DNA of 64,000 nt, taken from NCBI GenBank assembly GCA_001797465.1, contig MGPQ01000010.1, positions 4,028-68,027 on the forward strand, read 5' to 3'. The notes beneath the pieces are model-generated. The model had not been told where the DNA came from and did no database searches. It worked only from the letters and a program-made list of their open reading frames with translations. Within the stretch, counting starts at the first letter, position 1, and the number at the start of each line of letters is the position of its first letter. The DNA is from Deltaproteobacteria bacterium GWB2_55_19. GTDB lineage: Bacteria > Desulfobacterota > GWC2-55-46. The position numbers and the translations under genes are program-made. Below, piece by piece: positions 24-19,564 of this stretch.

Positions 24-1274
24 TTACTGGAGCTTCTTTATCTTAAGGGCCTCGAAGACGACCCTTTCAAAGAACGGCTCGGATACTCCCTTTTTCATCT
101 TCCGTATGAAGTACTTCTCAAAGGCGGCCTTGGCCAGATGCACCCACCTGCCTTTTTTCGCCCACGTGACATCCCTCGGCGGCATCTGAGGCAGGGCGAC
201 GAAGGCGATGCCGGTGTCGCCCATGTCGGCGAGGCATACCGCGTTCCAGGTGGCCCTTGCCGAAGGTGCTTCCCCTTTGATGGATGACTCGATGTTACGG
301 ACAACCGCAGTGACCATGCTCTCTATCATATAGCCGGTCTTGGGGACCCCGACTGGGACAGGGGTCGCTTCAGGCGGGGCGATGGCTATGCAGACCCCTA
401 CCCCGTAGATGTTTTTATACCTCGGGGACCTCTGAAACTCGTCCACGATGACGAACCCGCGCGGGTTGCAAAGGCCCTCGACCTTTGCAACACTTTCTAC
501 GCCCCTGAAGGCCGGGATGATCATCGAGTATTTGAAGGGGATCTCCCTTTCGCCTTCTCCAACGGCCTCGATAAACATCCTCCCCTTTTCTACTTTTTTT
601 ATCTTCGCGTTCGTATGCCAGCTCACATGTCTTTCGCGCAGCTCATGCTCAAGGAGCCCCTTTGAGTCGCCCACGCCCGAGAGCCCCAGGTGTCCTATGT
701 AAGGCTCAGGGGTTACGAAGGTGATAGGCACTTTTCTCCGGAGCTTTCTTTTCCTTAAGTCCGCGTCGATAATGAAAGCGAACTCATAGGCCGGGCCGAG
801 GCACGACGCCCCTTGAGCCGCGCCTATGACTATTGGGCCGGGGTCATCGAGGAACCTCTGGTATTCGGAGAATGCGGCCTCGGCGTGGTCAGCGGTGCAG
901 ACCGAGACGGTATTGCCTTGGGGCCCGAGCCCTTCTATCTCGTCGAAGGCGAGCTTAGGACCGGTTGCGATGATGAGATAATCGTACGGGACCGTTCCGC
1001 CGCTGGATGTACGGACCTCGTTCTTGACGGGGTCTATCGACGACGCGGCCTCGGCCACGAGCCGTATGCCTTTTTTCTCAAGGCAGGGTTTCAAAGGGAA
1101 GCTGATGTCTTTTCTGGTCCTCCACCCCACCGCTACCCAGGGGTTGGAAGGCACGAAGTGGAAGGTATCGGTATCTGAAATGACCGTCACTTCATTGTCA
1201 GGCCCGGCGGCCTTCGTCTCGTAAGCGGCGGGGAGCCCGCCGGTAGAAGCGCCTATGATCGCAATCCTGGCCAT
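24..1274 (-). CDS. sqr: Sulfide:quinone oxidoreductase
   Basis: N-terminal FAD-binding IIGASTGG, FVPSNPW, catalytic Cys motifs GASCLGPAYEF and NAVCLADMGD, VPKTGYMIESM, C-terminal amphipathic FEKYFIRKM. Confidence 0.92.
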   Translation of the reverse strand: MARIAIIGASTGGLPAAYETKAAGPDNEVTVISDTDTFHFVPSNPWVAVGWRTRKDISFPLKPCLEKKGIRLVAEAASSIDPVKNEVRTSSGGTVPYDYLIIATGPKLAFDEIEGLGPQGNTVSVCTADHAEAAFSEYQRFLDDPGPIVIGAAQGASCLGPAYEFAFIIDADLRKRKLRRKVPITFVTPEPYIGHLGLSGVGDSKGLLEHELRERHVSWHTNAKIKKVEKGRMFIEAVGEGEREIPFKYSMIIPAFRGVESVAKVEGLCNPRGFVIVDEFQRSPRYKNIYGVGVCIAIAPPEATPVPVGVPKTGYMIESMVTAVVRNIESSIKGEAPSARATWNAVCLADMGDTGIAFVALPQMPPRDVTWAKKGRWVHLAKAAFEKYFIRKMKKGVSEPFFERVVFEALKIKKLQ

Positions 1275-10245: not shown

Positions 10246-13053
10246 ATGAACGGGACAGGCTACATACTCGTCGTAGAGGACTCGAGGACGCAGGCCAGAC
10301 AGCTCGAGGAAACATTGAAACCGCTCGGGTGCAGTGTCTCTCTCGCCTACAACGGCAAGGAGGCGCTCGAGGTCATGCGGAGAGAGAGGCCGACCCTCGT
10401 CATAGCGGACATACTCATGCCGGAGCTCAACGGGTACCAGCTCTGCAAGATAATAAAGGCCGACGACAAGCTCAAGGACGTCCCGGTCGTCCTCATAACC
10501 CAGCTCTCGGACCCCCACGAAATAGTGCGCGGCATGGAGTGCGGGGCGGACGACTTCATCGTAAAGCCCTACAACGAGGACTTCCTCCTCACAAGGATCC
10601 AGGCGATACTCAGGATAAAGGTCGAGGAGCACGAGGCCGCCAAAGAGGTCGTCATCCTCGTCGTCGAGGACAGCCCCACTCAGGCCGAGCAGATGAAGTT
10701 CATGCTCGAGGAGAACGGCTACACCGTCAATCTCGCTTCGAACGGGCGGGAAGGGCTCGATGCCGCGAGAAAGATCAGGCCCACCATAATCATAAGCGAC
10801 ATACTCATGCCCGAGATGGACGGGTACGAGTTCGCCTACGAGGTCAAGCGCGACCCTGAGCTCAAAAAGACCCCGGTAATACTCGTCACCTCGCTCCTCG
10901 ACAAGAAGGACATCGTCCGCAGGGCCTCGGTCGTCGCGGACGGCTACTTCACGAAGCCCTTTGACGACAGGTACCTCGTCTCAAAGGTCGAGTCCCTCCT
11001 CGCCTCTTCCAGGAGGGAGGCGGAGGGCGACGGCGATAAGATAAACGTCTCCTTCGCCGGAGAGCATTACGCCATTGCCTCGGGCAGGAGGCAGATACTC
11101 ACCTTCCTCCTCTCCATATACGAGAACGCGGTCCTTCAGAACAGGGACTTGGTCCTCATGCAGAGGGAGCTCCAGCTCCTTAACGAACAACTCGAGGAAC
11201 GCGTCATAGAGAGGACCCGCCAGCTAAAGGCCTCCGAGGCCAAGTACCGGACCCTCCTTGAGACGAGCGCCGACGCGATAGTCGTCGCGGGCATAAACGG
11301 CACGGTCTATTTCACCAACAAGGCTGTGGAAACCCTCTTCGGGCTCAAGTCCGAAGAGCTCATCGACAAGCCCTTCATCGTACCCGTAGCCGAGAGCGGC
11401 ATGCGGGACATCGAGATAATCCGGAAGAACGGCGAAAAGGCGATCGCCGAGATGAGGGCCGTGAAGACCACCTGGGGAAACGAGGAGACTTATCTCGCCA
11501 CCTTCAGGGAGATAACCTTAAGGAAGCGCATGGAGGAGGAGCTCCGGGAAAGCGAGGAGAACTTCAGGGCTCTCGCCGACAACGCCAACGACGGCATCGT
11601 CATCACTTCCGGGCCCTTCGGGGCGATAACCTACGCTAACAAGCGTTTCTCCGAGATGTCCGGGCACACGGTCGACGAACTCCATGCGTTCAACATAAGC
11701 GGGCTCTTGAGCCCTGACGACACCGGGGACAACAGCGGCTTTTTCAAGGAACTGCTCGACGGGGCGCACTGCCTCGACCAGCAAGAGGTATATATAAAGA
11801 GAAAAGACGGCCGGCTCCCCGTGGAACTCGTCGCATCGCGGACGCTCTGGCACGGACAGAGCGCCCTGATCATAATCCTCCGCGATATAGCCGAGAGGAA
11901 GAAGAGGGAGGAGGAGATCCTCAAGGCGTCGAAGCTCGAGTCCCTGGGGACGCTCGCGGGAGGGATCGCGCACGACTTCAATAACCTGCTCACCGGCATC
12001 ATCGGCAACATTTCCATCGCGCGCCTCCTTGCCGGGCCCGACGAGAGGATGGGAAAGGCCTTAACCGACGCCGAGAACGCCTCCCTGAGGGCAAAGGACC
12101 TGACCTTCCAGCTCCTTACTTTCGCGCGCGGCGGGGCGCCAGTAAAAAAACTCTCCTCCGTCGCGCAGGTCATCAAGGAATCCGCGACGTTTTCGGTGCG
12201 CGGCACGCAAATACGCTGTGACCTTAACGTGCCTGACGACCTCTCACCCTTAGAGATAGACGAGGGGCAGATAAGCCAGGTCATCCACAACATCATCATC
12301 AACTCCGAGCAGGCGATGCCGAACGGCGGCGTAATAGCCGTAAAGGCCGAAAACGTCGTGCTTGGCCCCTCCGACAACCTCCCCGTAGGGCCCGGACGGT
12401 TCGTGAAAATTACCGTCAGCGACACCGGCGTCGGGATCCCGGCGGAGGTCATCTCCAAGATTTTCGACCCTTACTTCACCACAAAGGAGGAGGGCTCGGG
12501 TCTTGGGCTCGCTACAGTTTACTCCATCATAAAAAACCACAGCGGCTTTATCACCCTTGAGTCCACGGTAGGGATCGGCACTTCTTTTTACATCTACCTC
12601 CCGGCGGCCGAGGGCAAGCAGGTTTCCCCGAAAAAAGGGACTGAAGCGGGAGCGGTCATTGGCTCCGGCAGGATACTCATAATGGACGACGAGGAGATAG
12701 TCCGCGACGCGGCCGGCGCGATACTTACCGAGCTCGGCTACGTGGTCGCCTTCGCCGGCGACGGCGCAGAGGCGTTAGAGGCGTACAAGAGAGGGATGGA
12801 ATCGGGCGAGCCCTATGACATCGTCATAATGGACCTCACCATCCCCGCGGGCATGGGCGGGAAAGAGGCTATAAAGAAGCTCCTCGAGATAGACCCCTCT
12901 GCCAGCGCCATCGTCTCAAGCGGATATTCCAATGACTCCATCATGTCCGAGTTCGAGAAATACGGTTTTTCAGCGGTGATAGCGAAGCCGTACAGGATAA
13001 GCGACCTGAGCCAGACCGTGCACAGGGTAATCTCCTCAAGGAGGAGGGGTTAG
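10246..13053 (+). CDS. Hybrid sensor kinase REC-REC-PAS-PAS-HisKA-HATPase-REC, probable output of the chemosensory cluster
   Basis: Two N-terminal receivers, two PAS-like segments, GGIAHDFNNLL H-box, DTGVGI, FDPYFTTK, GSGLGL, C-terminal REC. Confidence 0.9.
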   Translation: MNGTGYILVVEDSRTQARQLEETLKPLGCSVSLAYNGKEALEVMRRERPTLVIADILMPELNGYQLCKIIKADDKLKDVPVVLITQLSDPHEIVRGMECGADDFIVKPYNEDFLLTRIQAILRIKVEEHEAAKEVVILVVEDSPTQAEQMKFMLEENGYTVNLASNGREGLDAARKIRPTIIISDILMPEMDGYEFAYEVKRDPELKKTPVILVTSLLDKKDIVRRASVVADGYFTKPFDDRYLVSKVESLLASSRREAEGDGDKINVSFAGEHYAIASGRRQILTFLLSIYENAVLQNRDLVLMQRELQLLNEQLEERVIERTRQLKASEAKYRTLLETSADAIVVAGINGTVYFTNKAVETLFGLKSEELIDKPFIVPVAESGMRDIEIIRKNGEKAIAEMRAVKTTWGNEETYLATFREITLRKRMEEELRESEENFRALADNANDGIVITSGPFGAITYANKRFSEMSGHTVDELHAFNISGLLSPDDTGDNSGFFKELLDGAHCLDQQEVYIKRKDGRLPVELVASRTLWHGQSALIIILRDIAERKKREEEILKASKLESLGTLAGGIAHDFNNLLTGIIGNISIARLLAGPDERMGKALTDAENASLRAKDLTFQLLTFARGGAPVKKLSSVAQVIKESATFSVRGTQIRCDLNVPDDLSPLEIDEGQISQVIHNIIINSEQAMPNGGVIAVKAENVVLGPSDNLPVGPGRFVKITVSDTGVGIPAEVISKIFDPYFTTKEEGSGLGLATVYSIIKNHSGFITLESTVGIGTSFYIYLPAAEGKQVSPKKGTEAGAVIGSGRILIMDDEEIVRDAAGAILTELGYVVAFAGDGAEALEAYKRGMESGEPYDIVIMDLTIPAGMGGKEAIKKLLEIDPSASAIVSSGYSNDSIMSEFEKYGFSAVIAKPYRISDLSQTVHRVISSRRRG

Positions 13054-13962: not shown

Positions 13963-14685
13963 ATGGAAGCCAAACAGAGGATAATTTTCGCGCTCGACGT
14001 GCAGACAATCGCGGAGGCCGAGTCGTTAGCGGCGCTTTTAAAAGACCACGTCGGCGTCTTCAAGATAGGACTTGAACTATTCGTCGCGAGCGGGCCGTCT
14101 GTTGTGGAAGCGGTGAGGAAAAAGGCACCCGGGTGCGGCATATTCCTTGATCTCAAGCTCCACGACATACCGGAGACGATCAAGGGCGCGATGAAGTCGG
14201 CCTCAACGCTCGGAGCGGCCTTCGTGACAGTGCACACGAACGACGGCTCTTCTCTCTTAAAGGCCGCGGTAGAGGCCGGCGGCGCTTCCAGGATACTCGG
14301 CGTGACTGTGTTGACGAGCCTTTCGGCTGAGGCCCTCAAAGAAGCCGGGATAGATATCGCCAGGTTCAAAGACCCTTCAGACCTTGTTTTGCAGAGGGCG
14401 AGTGTCGCGCGGATGGCCGGGTGCGCGGGTATTGTCTGCTCTGCGCAGGAGGCGGCGCTTGTCAGGAAGGAGTTCGGCCCGGACTTCCTTATCGTTACGC
14501 CGGGGATAAGGTCAGAGGGCGACGCAATCGGTGACCAGAAGCGGGTCGCGACCCCATATGAGGCGATACGAAACGGGGCGGACTATATCGTCGTCGGCAG
14601 ACCCATCAGAAAGGCCTTGGACCCAATAAAGGCGGCGGAGAGGATAGCGGCAGAGATCGAGAGGGCGTTAAAAGATAGAAAATAG
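13963..14685 (+). CDS. pyrF: Orotidine-5'-phosphate decarboxylase
   Basis: FKIGLEL, FLDLKLHDIPET, VTVLTS, VTPGIR, DQKRV, VVGRPI. Confidence 0.95.
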   Translation: MEAKQRIIFALDVQTIAEAESLAALLKDHVGVFKIGLELFVASGPSVVEAVRKKAPGCGIFLDLKLHDIPETIKGAMKSASTLGAAFVTVHTNDGSSLLKAAVEAGGASRILGVTVLTSLSAEALKEAGIDIARFKDPSDLVLQRASVARMAGCAGIVCSAQEAALVRKEFGPDFLIVTPGIRSEGDAIGDQKRVATPYEAIRNGADYIVVGRPIRKALDPIKAAERIAAEIERALKDRK

Positions 14686-14709
14686 GTTTGTTCGGATATT
14701 GAAATTGCG

Positions 14710-14739
14710 AAAGGCGGGGTGAAAGCCCCGCCTTTTTTT
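14710..14739 (+). terminator. Intrinsic terminator after pyrF
   Basis: AAAGGCGGGG-TGAAAG-CCCCGCCTTT plus T run. Confidence 0.75.
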
Positions 14740-14955: not shown

Positions 14956-15648
14956 TCAACCCCTCTTCCTCGCGTACCCGAGATAATTTACCGTCGTGTC
15001 GTTCGAGATCTTGAACTCGAGTTTCAACGGGTCGTAGGTCATGCCCTTCAACTCCTCTATCTCGACCTTGTTCTCTTCGAGTATCTGCTTCAATATCGAC
15101 GGCCTGACAAACCTGTTGTAGTCGTGCGTGCCTTTCGGGACCATGTTGAGGAGGTCTTCGGCGACGAAAATGGCGAAGAGGCGCGCCTTCATAGTTTTAT
15201 TGATGGTGCCGAAGAAGAAGAGGCCGCCTGGCTTTAACATGGAGAGAGAGTCGCGGAGAAACCCCTTTAAATCGTCTACATGCTCAAGAACCTCGGCGCA
15301 GACGATGATGTCAAATGGGGCTGGCGCGTCCTTTACCAATCTCTCTGGGGAAGATACCTTATAATCGATAGAGAGGTTGGATTCTGCCGCGTGCCTCTTT
15401 GCCGCGTCTATCGCAACCGGGGACAAATCTATGCCCGTGACCCGCGCGCCTGCGCCTGCGAACTTCTCCGAGAGAAGGCCGCCGCCGCAACCGATGTCGA
15501 GGACGGTCTTATCCGAGAGGTCGCCGGAGCGCGACGAGAAGTAATCGAAGCGGAGCGGGTTTATCCTATGGAGGGAAAAGAGCTTCCCCGTAGGGTTCCA
15601 CCATTCCTGTCCGAATTTTTCAAACTTTTCAGATTCAGTTGTCATCAT
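14956..15648 (-). CDS. ubiG: Ubiquinone biosynthesis O-methyltransferase UbiG
   Basis: EWWNPTG..LHRINPLRFDY, LDIGCGGGLLSE, EVLEHV, TINKT, VPKGTHDYNRF, VNYL; ATG overlaps ubiD TGA. Confidence 0.88.
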   Translation of the reverse strand: MMTTESEKFEKFGQEWWNPTGKLFSLHRINPLRFDYFSSRSGDLSDKTVLDIGCGGGLLSEKFAGAGARVTGIDLSPVAIDAAKRHAAESNLSIDYKVSSPERLVKDAPAPFDIIVCAEVLEHVDDLKGFLRDSLSMLKPGGLFFFGTINKTMKARLFAIFVAEDLLNMVPKGTHDYNRFVRPSILKQILEENKVEIEELKGMTYDPLKLEFKISNDTTVNYLGYARKRG

Positions 15649-17102
15649 TCTATCCCGTAGTCCTTCCACTTCCTGTCCACAAGCTCAACGATAAGCCTGT
15701 CCATCTCCATCTTCTCTCCCCACTTCCTCACAACCTCGGGCGGGTACTTGTTTGTGGCGTCTATGCCCATCTTCGACCCGAGGTTCTCAAGGGGCGATGA
15801 GAAGTCGAGATAATCTATCGGCGTGTTCTCGATTATTAGCGAGTCCCTCTTAGGGTCAACGCGGGTCGAGATCGCCCATATAACATCCGCCCAGTTATGG
15901 ACGTCGATGTCGTCGTCCACGACGATGATGTACTTCACGTACATGAACTGCTTCAATACGCCCCAGATGCCCATCATGAGGCGTCTCGCATGGCCGGGGT
16001 ATTCCTTTTTTATCGAGACGACCGCTATCCTGTACGAGACCGCCTCCATCGGGAGGCAGAAGTCAACGACCTCCGGGAACTGGAGCTTAAGAGACGGGAG
16101 GTAGATGTTATTGAGGACTGTCCCTATGACCGCGTCCTCCTTCGGGGGCCTTCCGGTTATGGTCGTAAGGTAGTGCGCGTCTTTTCTCCGCGTTATGGCC
16201 TTTAGGTGAAAGACCGGGAAAGGCTCTGCCGCGTTGTAGTAGCCGGTGTGGTCTCCGAACGGCCCCTCGGGCGCGGTATCTCCGTGGCGTATCTCGCCTT
16301 CAAGTATTATCTCGGCGGATGCCGGGACCTTCAGGGGAATCGTCTTGCACTCGACGAGCTCTATCGCCTTCTTCCTTAAAATCCCCGCGAAGTGGAACTC
16401 TCCGACGTCCTCTGGCACGGGTGTGACGCCTGCGATGATGGTAGCTGGCTCGGCGCCGATGGCCACAGCGACGGGCATGGGCCGCCCGGTCTTTTCCCAC
16501 TCCCGCTGGTGCTTGGCCCCGCCCCTGTGCGCGAGCCAGCGCATGATGGCGCGGTGCCTGTCCAGATACTGCATCCTGTATACGCCGACATTGAACGGGC
16601 CGCCGTCCGGCGACTGCGTTACGACGAGCGGCCATGTGATAAGCGGCCCCGCGTCCTTTGGCCAGCACTTTATGATAGGGATGGAAGACAGGTCCGCGTC
16701 GTCCCCTGTCTCGACGACCTCCTGGCACTCGCCCGACCTTACGGTCTTGGGGCCGAGCGTCAGCACCTTGCCGAAAAAGGGTATCTTTTTTACCGCGTCC
16801 CAGAGGCCTTCGGGCGGCTCGGGCCTCTGAAGGAGCGCGATGAACTCGCCTATCTCTCGTAGCTCCGCCTCTTCTACACCCAACCCCAGCGCCACGCGCT
16901 CTCTGGTCCCGAAGAGGTTCCCTACTACCGGCAGTTTGTAGCCCTTGACCTTCTCGAAGATAACCGCAGGGCCGCCAATGCGGACAAGCCTGTCCTGGAC
17001 CTCGGCGATTTCAAGGTTAGGGTCGACCTCTGTCTTTATCCTTTTAAGGAGCCCTTTTTTTTCAAGGGTGGAAAGAAAATCCCTTAAGTCGTTGTACGCC
17101 AT
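15645..17102 (-). CDS. ubiD: UbiD family prFMN-dependent 4-hydroxy-3-polyprenylbenzoate decarboxylase
   Basis: YNDLRDF, NVGVYRMQ, MRWLAHRGG, EGPFGDHTGYY, GRPPKED, DYLDFSSP, LGSKMGIDAT. Confidence 0.9.
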   Translation of the reverse strand: MAYNDLRDFLSTLEKKGLLKRIKTEVDPNLEIAEVQDRLVRIGGPAVIFEKVKGYKLPVVGNLFGTRERVALGLGVEEAELREIGEFIALLQRPEPPEGLWDAVKKIPFFGKVLTLGPKTVRSGECQEVVETGDDADLSSIPIIKCWPKDAGPLITWPLVVTQSPDGGPFNVGVYRMQYLDRHRAIMRWLAHRGGAKHQREWEKTGRPMPVAVAIGAEPATIIAGVTPVPEDVGEFHFAGILRKKAIELVECKTIPLKVPASAEIILEGEIRHGDTAPEGPFGDHTGYYNAAEPFPVFHLKAITRRKDAHYLTTITGRPPKEDAVIGTVLNNIYLPSLKLQFPEVVDFCLPMEAVSYRIAVVSIKKEYPGHARRLMMGIWGVLKQFMYVKYIIVVDDDIDVHNWADVIWAISTRVDPKRDSLIIENTPIDYLDFSSPLENLGSKMGIDATNKYPPEVVRKWGEKMEMDRLIVELVDRKWKDYGIE

Positions 17103-17109
17103 CAGGACC

Positions 17110-17988
17110 TCAGATGTAAAAGTCTATCAATATGAATACGAGGACAAGCCCCCCAAAAAACGCGTTCGCTGTAAACGACCTCCACGCCGTCGCTCTCGTA
17201 GGCGTCCTCTTTACCGTATTGACTGAACGGATAAACGCTATGAGAGAAACGAAGACGCCTCCGAAGAAAAAGGCGCCCATCCCCTTCAAATAGCCCGCGA
17301 GCGAGAGCGCAATCGCCATGCAGACGTACAGAAGATAAAGCGCCTTATATACAGAATCCCCGAAGAGGAGCGCCGTTGATTTCACGCCAATCTTTATATC
17401 GTCGTCCTTGTCCATCAAGGCGTATATGGTGTCATACGCTATCGACCAGAATATGTTGGCGGCAAATATAAGGAGCGGGACAATCCCGAGCGCGTTGTTT
17501 ACAGCCGCCCATGCCATGACCGCGCCCCAACCGAAGGCCATGCCGAGGACGGCCTGGGGCCAGTGGCTGACGCGCTTCACAAACGGGTAGACAGAGGCGA
17601 GCGCGATCCCGATAAAGGAAAGGACGATGGTAAAGGGGTTAAGGAAGAGCACGAGTACGAAGGCGAGGAGCGAGAGCGCGGCGAATACAAAAAGGGCCTC
17701 CCTGACGCAAAGCCTCCCGCTCGCTATGGGGCGCGACCTGGTGCGCTCGACGAATGGGTCGAACCCCCTGTCCGCGACGTCGTTTATGGCGCACCCGGCG
17801 CTACGCATGAGGAAGGTGCCGATGACGAATATCACGAGGACCTTCAAGGGCGGCCTCCCGTCTGAAGCGAGGAAGAGCGACCAGAGTGTGGGCCAGAGGA
17901 CGAGGAGAGTGCCCTGCTGTCTCGGGAGCCTTATGAGGTCCGAGACCGCCGAGAGCTTCTCCGATGAGATGGTCCCGGTCCGCATCAT
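17110..17988 (-). CDS. ubiA: 4-hydroxybenzoate polyprenyltransferase UbiA
   Basis: GTLLVLWPTLWSL, MRSAGCAINDVADR..D..VERT..RP, YPFVKR, YDTIYA..DKDDD..IGVKSTA; multiple TM helices. Confidence 0.88.
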   Translation of the reverse strand: MMRTGTISSEKLSAVSDLIRLPRQQGTLLVLWPTLWSLFLASDGRPPLKVLVIFVIGTFLMRSAGCAINDVADRGFDPFVERTRSRPIASGRLCVREALFVFAALSLLAFVLVLFLNPFTIVLSFIGIALASVYPFVKRVSHWPQAVLGMAFGWGAVMAWAAVNNALGIVPLLIFAANIFWSIAYDTIYALMDKDDDIKIGVKSTALLFGDSVYKALYLLYVCMAIALSLAGYLKGMGAFFFGGVFVSLIAFIRSVNTVKRTPTRATAWRSFTANAFFGGLVLVFILIDFYI

Positions 17989-18581
17989 CTCTCCTTAAAA
18001 AACCTGTTCGAGATTATCTCCGGGCTGAATATTTCGGTGACGCCCGCCTTTATGACCCACTTCGTGGGGGACGAGTTGTTATAAAGGATGTACCGCCGTG
18101 CTATTAGAGGGGTTTTCGCGTCTATCCCCAAGTCCGTTGCCGCGCTCTCGCACGAGACGACCCCGACCTCGAGTTTTTTCTTGGCGAAAAAGACCTTCCT
18201 CGTCGTAAGGACCCGGCCTAAGGGCTCAGAGCTGTTCGCGAGTATGTCGTTTAATATCGAGTCCTCTATCCTGTCGAGCGGTATGACGGAGTGGGCGTAG
18301 ACGAGCCTTTTATCCTCTACCTTAAGCCAGACCTCCCTTTCGAGCGCGTCCTTGCCGGTCCTCTCTTCGAGGTAGGCGGCCTCGTCCTTGAGCTTCGTTA
18401 TGCCCTGGAACTTCACCTCCACCTCTACCATCGACCTCCAGAGGAGCTCGAGGTCGAGCGTCATCGAACCGTCGGAGAGGAGGAGGAGCTTCTGATGGGG
18501 CAGTAGCCCCGTGAGCTCAGGCCTGTCTTTCTCTTCCTCGGCGCTGAACCAGTCCTTGAGGATGGCATAGTTGAACGGCAT
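17985..18581 (-). CDS. ubiC: Chorismate pyruvate-lyase (UbiC/DUF98-like)
   Basis: LLLSDGSMT..LE, REVWL, LVYAHS, PLGRVL, RRY, VTEIF; first gene of the ubi operon; stop overlaps ubiA start. Confidence 0.75.
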   Translation of the reverse strand: MPFNYAILKDWFSAEEEKDRPELTGLLPHQKLLLLSDGSMTLDLELLWRSMVEVEVKFQGITKLKDEAAYLEERTGKDALEREVWLKVEDKRLVYAHSVIPLDRIEDSILNDILANSSEPLGRVLTTRKVFFAKKKLEVGVVSCESAATDLGIDAKTPLIARRYILYNNSSPTKWVIKAGVTEIFSPEIISNRFFKER

Positions 18582-18589
18582 AAGGAGTG

Positions 18590-18618
18590 AAATTACCACA
18601 TAGAGGGTCTTTGGTCAA
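18590..18618 (-). promoter_or_regulatory. Promoter of the ubiCADG operon (near-leaderless)
   Basis: TTGACC-17 nt-TAATTT with extended TG; 8 nt from -10 to ATG 18581; no SD. Confidence 0.6.
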
Positions 18619-18819: not shown

Positions 18820-19317
18820 TTAGTTCTTTGTGGCGAGCGTCTCTTTCGCGGGCTCGGCGTACTGGGGCTCGGGCTGTTCGGCGGCCTTCAAAAAAGCGTC
18901 GACGCTGTACTTTATCGCCGCGGCTGTGGACTTGTTCTGTCCGCGGAGGATCTTAAGGAGCTTTCCGACATAGATTATTTCGTCAGCGGAAAGGGCCGCG
19001 ACGTCAGGCATCCTGTAACCCTCTTTTCCTTCCTTGCCGTATGCCGAAGTCTCCTCAGCCGCTATCATGTAGGTCTTGAAGTCCCCGCCCTTTGCCGAGG
19101 CCTTGTACATCTCGCCGTCGCCGGATATAAGCCAGTCGACTGAGAGGCCGTAGATGTTAGCGAACCGAAGGACGAGATCTGTCGGCATCTCTCCGCGTTT
19201 CTTGTAATTGGAGAGCGCCTGGGGCGTTACGCCGAGAACCCTGGCGACCGCGGAGTCGTTCTTGAGCTTTCCTGCCCAGCGCATCCTCTCTATGATATCT
19301 GAATAGCTTACGCCCAT
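18820..19317 (-). CDS. Phage CI-repressor-like HTH domain protein without a peptidase domain
   Basis: IIERM...ARVLGVTPQALSNYKKRG..P...VDWLISGDGEM; AAGGAG RBS before ATG 19317. Confidence 0.75.
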   Translation of the reverse strand: MGVSYSDIIERMRWAGKLKNDSAVARVLGVTPQALSNYKKRGEMPTDLVLRFANIYGLSVDWLISGDGEMYKASAKGGDFKTYMIAAEETSAYGKEGKEGYRMPDVAALSADEIIYVGKLLKILRGQNKSTAAAIKYSVDAFLKAAEQPEPQYAEPAKETLATKN

Positions 19318-19564
19318 ATTATTCTCCTTTGGCTGTGAATTAATCATCCAGATGAAATTTTTGCGGCGTTTCCCGTTAAAAGGGACCACATAATGCCCTT
19401 TAAAAAACGGTTAAGGAGTGAGTAGGAGGCTTAAACCGAGAGGCCAATTCAAAAAGCGTGAGAAATCGGCAGAAAAACCGGAGGTCGCGTTTCAGGAATT
19501 GCCGAGCGTCACTGCTCACCCATAGTGACCAAGCTATCATAGCTTAATCATTGGTATTTCTTAA

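Follow-up and report, generated by a model that had tools for sequence, protein, structure and literature searches.

Described quinone pathways and the ubiCADG locus

Ubiquinone (UQ) has long been held to be confined to Pseudomonadota and to be a marker of aerobic life, and the futalosine pathway of menaquinone synthesis is the usual one in Desulfobacterota. The ring hydroxylations of UQ synthesis can be served by more than one system, E. coli having both an O2-dependent set of hydroxylases and the UbiTUV system. Here we analyze a 64,000-nucleotide stretch, hereafter the window, which covers positions 4028-68027 of contig C10 of the metagenome-assembled genome (MAG) of Deltaproteobacteria bacterium GWB2_55_19 (G000 in our sample) and in which four genes resembling ubiC, ubiA, ubiD and ubiG are packed head to tail. 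It is very probable that these genes make up the ubiCADG locus within a complete O2-independent UQ pathway inherited within the uncultured class GWC2-55-46 of the Desulfobacterota. The ubiquinone-type pathway proposed by an earlier sequence-only reading of this DNA is supported by the gene content, the gene order, the genes that are missing, the type of UbiA and its phylogenetic placement, all of which, along with the conservation of the locus throughout the class, were observed directly; the function of the genes in E. coli was established by others for a different genome of the same class, GCA_001595385.3, as reported in PMC13386864.

The closest described system is that of the class itself, as set out in PMC13386864 ('Global distribution of isoprenoid quinones across Bacteria', mSystems July 2026;11(7):e01681-25; preprint 10.1101/2025.09.17.676790, Sept 2025). 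According to its text, nine high-quality GWC2-55-46 MAGs show no sign of a menaquinone pathway and carry ubiA, B, C, D, E, G, K, X, T, U and V, with the loci ubiCADG and ubiVKBET conserved in the class; all the ubi genes of GCA_001595385.3 except ubiK raised ubiquinone-8 (UQ8) in the matching E. coli mutants. In that study the proteins of the class form the sister group of the Pseudomonadota ones and cluster with the methyl-plastoquinone proteins of Nitrospirota; its authors keep the reservation that a Pseudomonadota lineage which is extinct or was not sampled may have donated the genes long ago. This was the only paper found in which the class name and ubiquinone occur together. As it reports the same pathway, the same loci, the same missing menaquinone genes and the complementation, the pathway is already described and experimentally validated in GWC2-55-46, and the window repeats it gene for gene; the caution of the sequence-only reading that genome surveys may already hold the ubi genes of related MAGs was thus well placed. 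To the extent that the system is described there, nothing essential differs: the gene set (with a UbiK-like ORF as candidate ubiK), the two loci, the lack of a menaquinone pathway and of an O2-dependent hydroxylase, and the host clade are the same, GCA_001595385.3 having been compared by description rather than by protein alignment. The present genome lacks rquA, which is present in the test genome of that study, and departs from the ubiVKBET arrangement in having an ORF (open reading frame) for a CGGC-domain protein and a gap of ~0.7 kb between ubiB and ubiE, with ubiU on another contig. The significance of the system therefore belongs to PMC13386864, and the window adds to that account one more complete, well-assembled example and a wider census.

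Three further systems bear comparison. The UbiT/UbiU/UbiV pathway of Pseudomonadota, known from E. coli and P. aeruginosa in the accounts of PMC6747719 and PMC10990095, shares with the present one the same enzyme families, each over its NCBIfam equivalog cut-off, and the same logic of hydroxylation without O2, for which the abstract of PMC10990095 names prephenate as the oxygen donor. In contrast to it, our genome has UbiU, UbiV and UbiT as its sole hydroxylation system, with no UbiH/F/I-type enzyme found; its genes are far more compactly arranged, and its UbiA is not a member of the clade formed by the sampled Pseudomonadota. The methyl-plastoquinone (Mpq) pathway of Nitrospirota, as presented in PMC11874023 (Elling et al.), uses homologous head-group enzymes, namely chorismate lyase-, UbiA-, UbiD- and UbiE-like proteins; the ubiC-like/ubiA/ubiD order is common to both and the UbiA homologues group together, whereas our genome has UbiG and UbiUVT and misses the cut-off of the MpqE model, and the Nitrospirota loci show no ubiG match. 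The main text of that paper mentions Desulfobacterota once, in a figure legend. Finally, the futalosine pathway (MqnA-D, MqnP and the SCO4490-type decarboxylase) also employs a UbiA-family prenyltransferase and a UbiD-family decarboxylase, but our genome is without MqnA/D, its UbiA misses the MqnP models, and both ubiC and ubiG are present.

Organization of the operon and family affinities of its products

The four ORFs lie on the minus strand between 14956 and 18599 in the order ubiC-like, ubiA, ubiD and ubiG (Table 1). When the junctions were checked base by base on that strand, the tight coupling claimed in the sequence-only reading was confirmed: the stop of the ubiC-like gene and the start of ubiA overlap as ATGA, a gap of 7 nt separates ubiA from ubiD, and the TGA of ubiD overlaps the ATG of ubiG at 15648, again as ATGA. 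An alternative GTG start of ubiG at 15669, 21 nt upstream of this ATG, would give a product of 237 aa and an overlap of 25 nt. The tight translational coupling suggests that the enzymes of the early steps might be co-expressed stoichiometrically with the O-methyltransferase.

Protein families were assigned by comparing bit scores with the cut-offs of the Pfam and NCBIfam models, and scores are given below against these cut-offs. The UbiA protein reaches the proteobacterial model TIGR01474 (ubiA_proteo; 303.2 versus 275.45) and PF01040 (213 bits), and remains far below three MqnP models (91.6, 76.5 and 72.9 versus 420, 375 and 430), so that the proposed check of its type against MqnP came out in favor of a UbiA. 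Its translation contains the proteobacterial LLxLWPTLW motif that had been claimed for it, in the form LLVLWPTLW, along with the Asp-rich motifs NDVAD and DKDDD. The UbiG was likewise found to be genuine: it scores 249.8 on TIGR01983 against a cut-off of 102.95, a model reached among 14 control genomes by E. coli and Caulobacter only, and its translation has the S-adenosylmethionine-binding motif VLDIGCGGG. The UbiD protein is well above the subfamily model TIGR00148 (534.8 versus 244.85), and the ubiC-like product matches the Pfam domains PF01947 (65.5 bits, cut-off 22) and PF04345 (36.1, cut-off 23.6).

The remainder of the pathway in the genome

The genome is a MAG of 2.63 Mb in 21 contigs which is 100% complete by marker count, and the searches that the sequence-only reading had proposed recovered from it the other genes of the pathway. 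UbiB (522.6 versus 487.55), UbiT (74.7 versus 46.9) and UbiX (211.3 versus 108.9) are over their NCBIfam cut-offs, as are UbiV (282.7 versus 275) and UbiU (443.7 versus 440), both by a small margin, the latter being encoded on contig C2; UbiE was found at the subfamily level (TIGR01934, 264.2 versus 158.35). A BMFP/UbiK-like ORF of 138 aa (PF04380, 40.0 versus 37.2) lies between ubiV and ubiB in a second locus, which comprises ubiV, the UbiK-like ORF, ubiB, the ORF for the CGGC-domain protein, a gap, ubiE and ubiT. The CGGC-domain ORF follows ubiB closely (Table 1).

Equally distinctive is what the genome does not encode. No flavin-dependent Ubi hydroxylase was found in it, the best match to TIGR01988 scoring 25.7 bits against a cut-off of 224.65 (Coq7-type enzymes were not searched), and RquA was not found (54.8 versus 175). 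The proposed search for menaquinone genes gave no match to MqnA/D (PF02621; mqnB/C/E not searched) and a MenD score of 67.7 against a cut-off of 244.2, which is to say that no MenD was found (menB/C/E/F not searched). The UbiA family has three members in the genome, namely the ubiA of the operon, heme O synthase and an orphan MenA-like ORF. The last of these adjoins unrelated genes, those for an Hsp20 protein and a Ca/Na antiporter.

Phyletic patterns and the placement of the host

A quick RpoB tree of 58 rows (LG+G4, with support by the SH-aLRT branch test only, and two Pseudomonadota outgroups) places the two outgroups outside a branch of 100% SH-aLRT support and recovers the own class as a 100% clade. 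The genome falls within a six-row clade of 99% support along with MAGs titled UBA5799, H5_GWC, GWA2_55_10, NC_groundwater_74 and H41-bin279_1, and two species of the genus UBA5799 are labelled as Desulfobacterota class GWC2-55-46 in the supplement of PMC13386864. On account of this clade and this label the host is placed in GWC2-55-46. The claim that it belongs to the Desulfobacterota and not to the Pseudomonadota is supported by the position of RpoB inside the phylum sample, near MAGs titled Thermodesulfobacteriota or Deltaproteobacteria.

The relatives of UbiA tell a comparable story, relatives and tree rows having been grouped by the words in their record titles. Among species-representative genomes the nearest relative, at locus L028, is 97% identical, and the closest relatives, which range from 97% to ~55% identity, are encoded by MAGs titled 'Deltaproteobacteria bacterium' or 'Thermodesulfobacteriota bacterium', many of them from groundwater; next come proteins of Nitrospirota, Nitrospinota, Zetaproteobacteria and Methylococcales at 44-58% identity. 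The UbiA tree that had been proposed as a check, a quick one of 95 rows whose sampling is biased to the best matches of the query, splits off nine Pseudomonadota rows, Zetaproteobacteria and Methylococcales-type Gammaproteobacteria only, by a branch of 98% SH-aLRT support; the rows of Desulfobacterota are without exception found across this branch, together with those of Nitrospirota and Nitrospinota. Four Nitrospirota loci (L078, L086, L087 and L090) have the ubiC-like/ubiA/ubiD order. No ubiG match was found at any of the four, although in L078, L086 and L087 6.5 kb downstream of ubiD was available for the search, which fits a plastoquinone-type product there as against UQ in our genome.

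The operon was surveyed in 57 loci found through UbiA, in MAGs titled Deltaproteobacteria, Thermodesulfobacteriota, Proteobacteria or 'bacterium'. The four genes are collinear within 6.5 kb in 38 of these; 15 of the other 19 end at a contig or locus edge, and just four miss a gene despite having room for it, L048 and L059 being without ubiG, L082 without ubiC, and L085 without both ubiD and ubiG. UbiG (E<=1e-40) occurs in 82 of the 96 class genomes examined, and in 55 of the 63 high-quality ones. UbiU is over its cut-off in all six sampled class genomes and in four of five named relatives, the fifth scoring 427.8 against 440. Flavin hydroxylases are found in none of eight class genomes, and a search of 17 relatives gave no match to them at E<=1e-15. 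In a sample of 201 genomes of the phylum, UbiG is over its cut-off in 21; MqnA/D occurs in 98, as would be expected of a phylum that mostly uses menaquinone, and in none of the seven genomes of the own class, the present one included.

Two departures from these patterns were observed. In family f6 of the own class UbiG was found in only four of ten genomes; the six without a match (G217, G223, G225, G227, G231 and G297) are 62-93% complete, and the pattern could reflect either a lineage with a different quinone or gene loss, or incomplete MAGs. In G145, a genome of another family, a UbiG-like protein has the best score of the sample (269.8 bits), in the presence of MqnA/D, with no UbiU and with a UbiB match just below the cut-off.

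Alternative interpretations

Several observations weigh against assigning the locus to UQ synthesis in a Desulfobacterota host. The ubiC-like product reaches no NCBIfam equivalog, scoring 52.3 against a cut-off of 175 on the cyanobacterial chorismate lyase model (cyano_chori_ly), so that its support as a chorismate lyase is at the Pfam level only. The best model of UbiD is PRK10922, on which its 662.8 bits stay below the E. coli-type equivalog cut-off of 788, and it passes barely over the menaquinone decarboxylase model TIGR03701 (501.4 versus 495.9); taken alone, its assignment is thus ambiguous. UbiE falls below the UbiE equivalog cut-offs (311.1 versus 378; 308.2 versus 351) and has nearly the same score, 291.4, on the methyl-plastoquinone MpqE model, whose cut-off is 335. 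The orphan MenA-like ORF approaches the cut-off of TIGR00751 (100.7 versus 102.15). The placement of the host has as its basis single-gene quick trees and one supplement label. No RNA sequencing runs containing the operon are listed, only DNA runs labelled groundwater metagenome, and we infer from the genes both the quinone actually made and its electron-transfer partners in this organism.

The scores of UbiE, taken together with the grouping of the UbiA of the class with Nitrospirota and Nitrospinota rather than Pseudomonadota (a topology that PMC13386864 also reports) and with the ubiC-like/ubiA/ubiD order of some Nitrospirota loci, could be read as pointing to another prenylated benzoquinone, be it a (methyl-)plastoquinone-like compound, demethoxy-UQ or rhodoquinone. 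We consider this very unlikely: the MpqE cut-off is missed, no RquA was found in the genome, and the bona fide UbiG of the operon and the UbiU, UbiV and UbiT proteins, all over their cut-offs, would supply the methoxy and hydroxyl groups that plastoquinones lack. The three Nitrospirota loci with ample downstream sequence are without a ubiG match, and E. coli mutants regained UQ8 with the genes of another genome of the class, as reported in PMC13386864. The score of UbiD on TIGR03701, which it exceeds by 5.5 bits, the MenA-like ORF and the prevalence of MqnA/D in the phylum would suit a different proposal, namely that ubiA and ubiD encode futalosine enzymes (MqnP and a SCO4490-type decarboxylase) and that the organism, in common with most Desulfobacterota, is a menaquinone producer. 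Its probability is close to nil, given that MqnA/D has no match in this complete genome or in the other sampled members of the class, that MenD was not found, that UbiA passes the ubiA_proteo cut-off and not those of MqnP, and that translational coupling joins ubiA and ubiD to ubiC and ubiG, two genes for which the futalosine route has no use.

There is also only a very slim chance that the operon is foreign, whether as a binning or assembly contaminant or through recent transfer from a Pseudomonadota donor, as the traditional confinement of UQ to that phylum and the nature of the genome, a MAG in 21 contigs, might lead one to suspect. The operon lies on a contig of 465.9 kb, 37-40 kb from dnaN and dnaA and amidst core genes (pyrE, pyrF, mltG and mnmG), the GC content of its region (0.556-0.584) matches that of the genome (0.52-0.58 per contig), it is conserved throughout the class, and its UbiA is not nested in the nine Pseudomonadota rows. 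So thin a sampling is compatible with a related scenario, in which the genes came long ago from a lineage of Pseudomonadota that is extinct or was not sampled. On balance, a UQ pathway inherited within GWC2-55-46 accounts for the four genes best.

Proposed pathway and respiratory partners

The steps of the pathway can be proposed from what is generally known of Ubi enzymology. UbiC would convert chorismate to 4-hydroxybenzoate, which UbiA would prenylate, and UbiD, with the prenylated flavin mononucleotide (prenyl-FMN) provided by UbiX, would decarboxylate the prenylated ring. The U32-family proteins UbiU and UbiV together with the lipid-binding UbiT would carry out the three ring hydroxylations without O2, UbiG both O-methylations and UbiE the C-methylation, with UbiB and UbiK as probable accessory proteins.

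UQ is probably the only respiratory quinone of the organism, and under micro-oxic conditions it might connect donors such as type I sulfide:quinone oxidoreductase (SQR) with caa3- and cbb3-type oxidases. The SQR that the sequence-only reading had noted 14 kb from the operon is indeed present near the start of the window (Table 1), and is a plausible user of the UQ pool. The genome encodes four homologues of heme-copper oxidase subunit I, one of the caa3 type, one of the cbb3 type and two further ones. The caa3-type set includes CtaD (652.3 versus 670.75, below the cut-off) and CoxB (182.5 versus 147.7), and the cbb3-type set CcoN (727.9 versus 583.15) with CcoO, CcoP and CcoG; a cytochrome b-containing protein is a likely further partner of the UQ pool. 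Cytochrome bd (PF01654) has no match in the genome at E<=1e-20, and weak partial matches of 74-88 bits occur in 18 of 31 class genomes. The SQR, the caa3- and cbb3-type oxidases and the cytochrome b protein suggest an organism of micro-aerobic or facultatively anaerobic habit that is able to build a high-potential quinone without O2, and the class is viewed likewise in the text of PMC13386864. Such an organism is relevant to the timing and mode of origin of high-potential quinones, and to the way in which bacteria of the subsurface connect anoxic with micro-oxic respiration.

Possible spread beyond GWC2-55-46

What remains new in our analysis is the possibility that the pathway is more widely distributed in the phylum, the rest being known. 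Whether O2-independent UQ synthesis in Desulfobacterota reaches beyond GWC2-55-46 appears evenly balanced on the gene complements of two families, f11 and f28, which are labelled as being of the same phylum but not of the same class, and hence of another class. UbiG occurs in all five f11 genomes and in two of the four of f28; UbiA and UbiU are each over the cut-off in four of five and in all four, and UbiB in four of five and three of four, respectively. UbiD-like proteins (E<=1e-100) are encoded by all five f11 genomes, with 59-60% identity to the UbiD of the window, and by two of the f28 genomes, with 66-67%. UbiV is also present, the scores of these proteins being over or near the cut-offs, and neither MqnA/D nor flavin hydroxylases were found in any of the five f11 or four f28 genomes. 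The completeness of several of these MAGs is only 79-86%, and some genes may have been missed for that reason.

The ubi genes of the two families are scattered, with ubiD and ubiG each standing alone and no ubiCADG locus (Table 1). In the UbiA tree their rows group together (90%) and with Nitrospirota (92%), on the side of the GWC2-55-46 homologues and not with Pseudomonadota. A sister relationship of f28 to the own class, seen with 97% support in a first RpoB tree, was not recovered in the tree of 58 rows. An older GTDB release may place f11 and f28 inside the class, although the ubiCADG organization that PMC13386864 describes for the class is absent from them. No paper was found on ubiquinone in other classes of Desulfobacterota, the related preprint that was found being without the word ubiquinone. 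If the wider distribution is real, then either the UQ pathway has a greater age and range in the phylum than the nine published MAGs suggest, or it has moved between classes.

In one f11 genome, G005, ubiG adjoins genes for a DmsE-family decaheme cytochrome and an MtrB/PioB-type outer-membrane protein, a neighborhood that may point to extracellular iron redox chemistry in this lineage with UQ genes.

Genomic neighborhood of the operon

On its 3' side the operon is met by the core genes pyrE and pyrF, which converge on the end of ubiG, and a terminator-like hairpin between pyrF and ubiG putatively marks the end of the transcription units. Upstream lie a gene for a CI-repressor-like helix-turn-helix (HTH) protein and a tRNA gene. 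The HTH gene is preceded by a perfect TTGACA-17-TATAAT match; a promoter-like site was looked for between this gene and ubiC and none was found, so the operon might be read through from the HTH gene.

Table 1. Positions of the genes and sites discussed in the text. Plain numbers are window positions; prefixed ones refer to the genome (G), contig (C) or locus (L) named.
Feature	Position	Strand	Remarks
Sulfide:quinone oxidoreductase (type I SQR), outside the operon	24..1274	-	540 bits, E 4.7e-161, to PDB sulfide-quinone reductase chains (3sz0 and others); 384 bits to 3hyv
pyrF	13963-14685	+	convergent with ubiG
Terminator-like GC-rich hairpin and T-run	14709..14736	+	12 pairs, 7 GC; consensus scan only
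ubiG, O-methyltransferase	14956..15648	-	230 aa from ATG 15648; TIGR01983
ubiD, prenyl-FMN-dependent decarboxylase	15645..17102	-	485 aa; TIGR00148, three UbiD Pfam domains
ubiA, 4-hydroxybenzoate polyprenyltransferase	17110..17988	-	292 aa; TIGR01474
ubiC-like chorismate pyruvate-lyase, operon gene 1	17985..18599	-	204 aa; PF01947, PF04345
CI-repressor-like HTH gene	18820-19389	-	same strand as ubiC, 220 nt upstream
TTGACA-17-TATAAT match	19593-19565	-	
ubiX	G000:C10:75456-76043		7.4 kb past the window end
Second ubi locus	C10 ~292.3-297.6 kb (L018:6295-11619)		
CGGC-domain protein	L018:9316-9750 = G000:C10:295315-295749	+	PF08821, 84.5 bits; starts 2 nt past the ubiB ORF end
Orphan MenA-like ORF	L027:6620-7522 = G000:C1:6620-7522	-	
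Heme-copper oxidase subunit I homologues	L207:3808-7258, L208:3710-7854, L209:3277-4794, L026:7356-8789		
ubiC-like/ubiA/ubiD, Nitrospirota	L078:7385-10314, L086:3569-6468, L087:19-2708, L090:4996-7939		
UbiG-like protein of G145	G145:C35:170455-171108		
ubiG of G005 (f11)	L121:7944-8681		
Decaheme cytochrome and MtrB/PioB-type genes of G005	L121:4660-7868	+	
ubiV and ubiU of G005	L122:6516-8457		adjacent
ubiD of G005	L123:3804-5285		
ubi genes of G023	L124:7288-7968, L125:4961-5872 and 10669-11676, L126:6365-7843		

Besides the genes already named, the window contains rsmG, parAB, yidC and mnmE, and the presence of these alongside mnmG, dnaN and dnaA identifies it as the replication-origin region.

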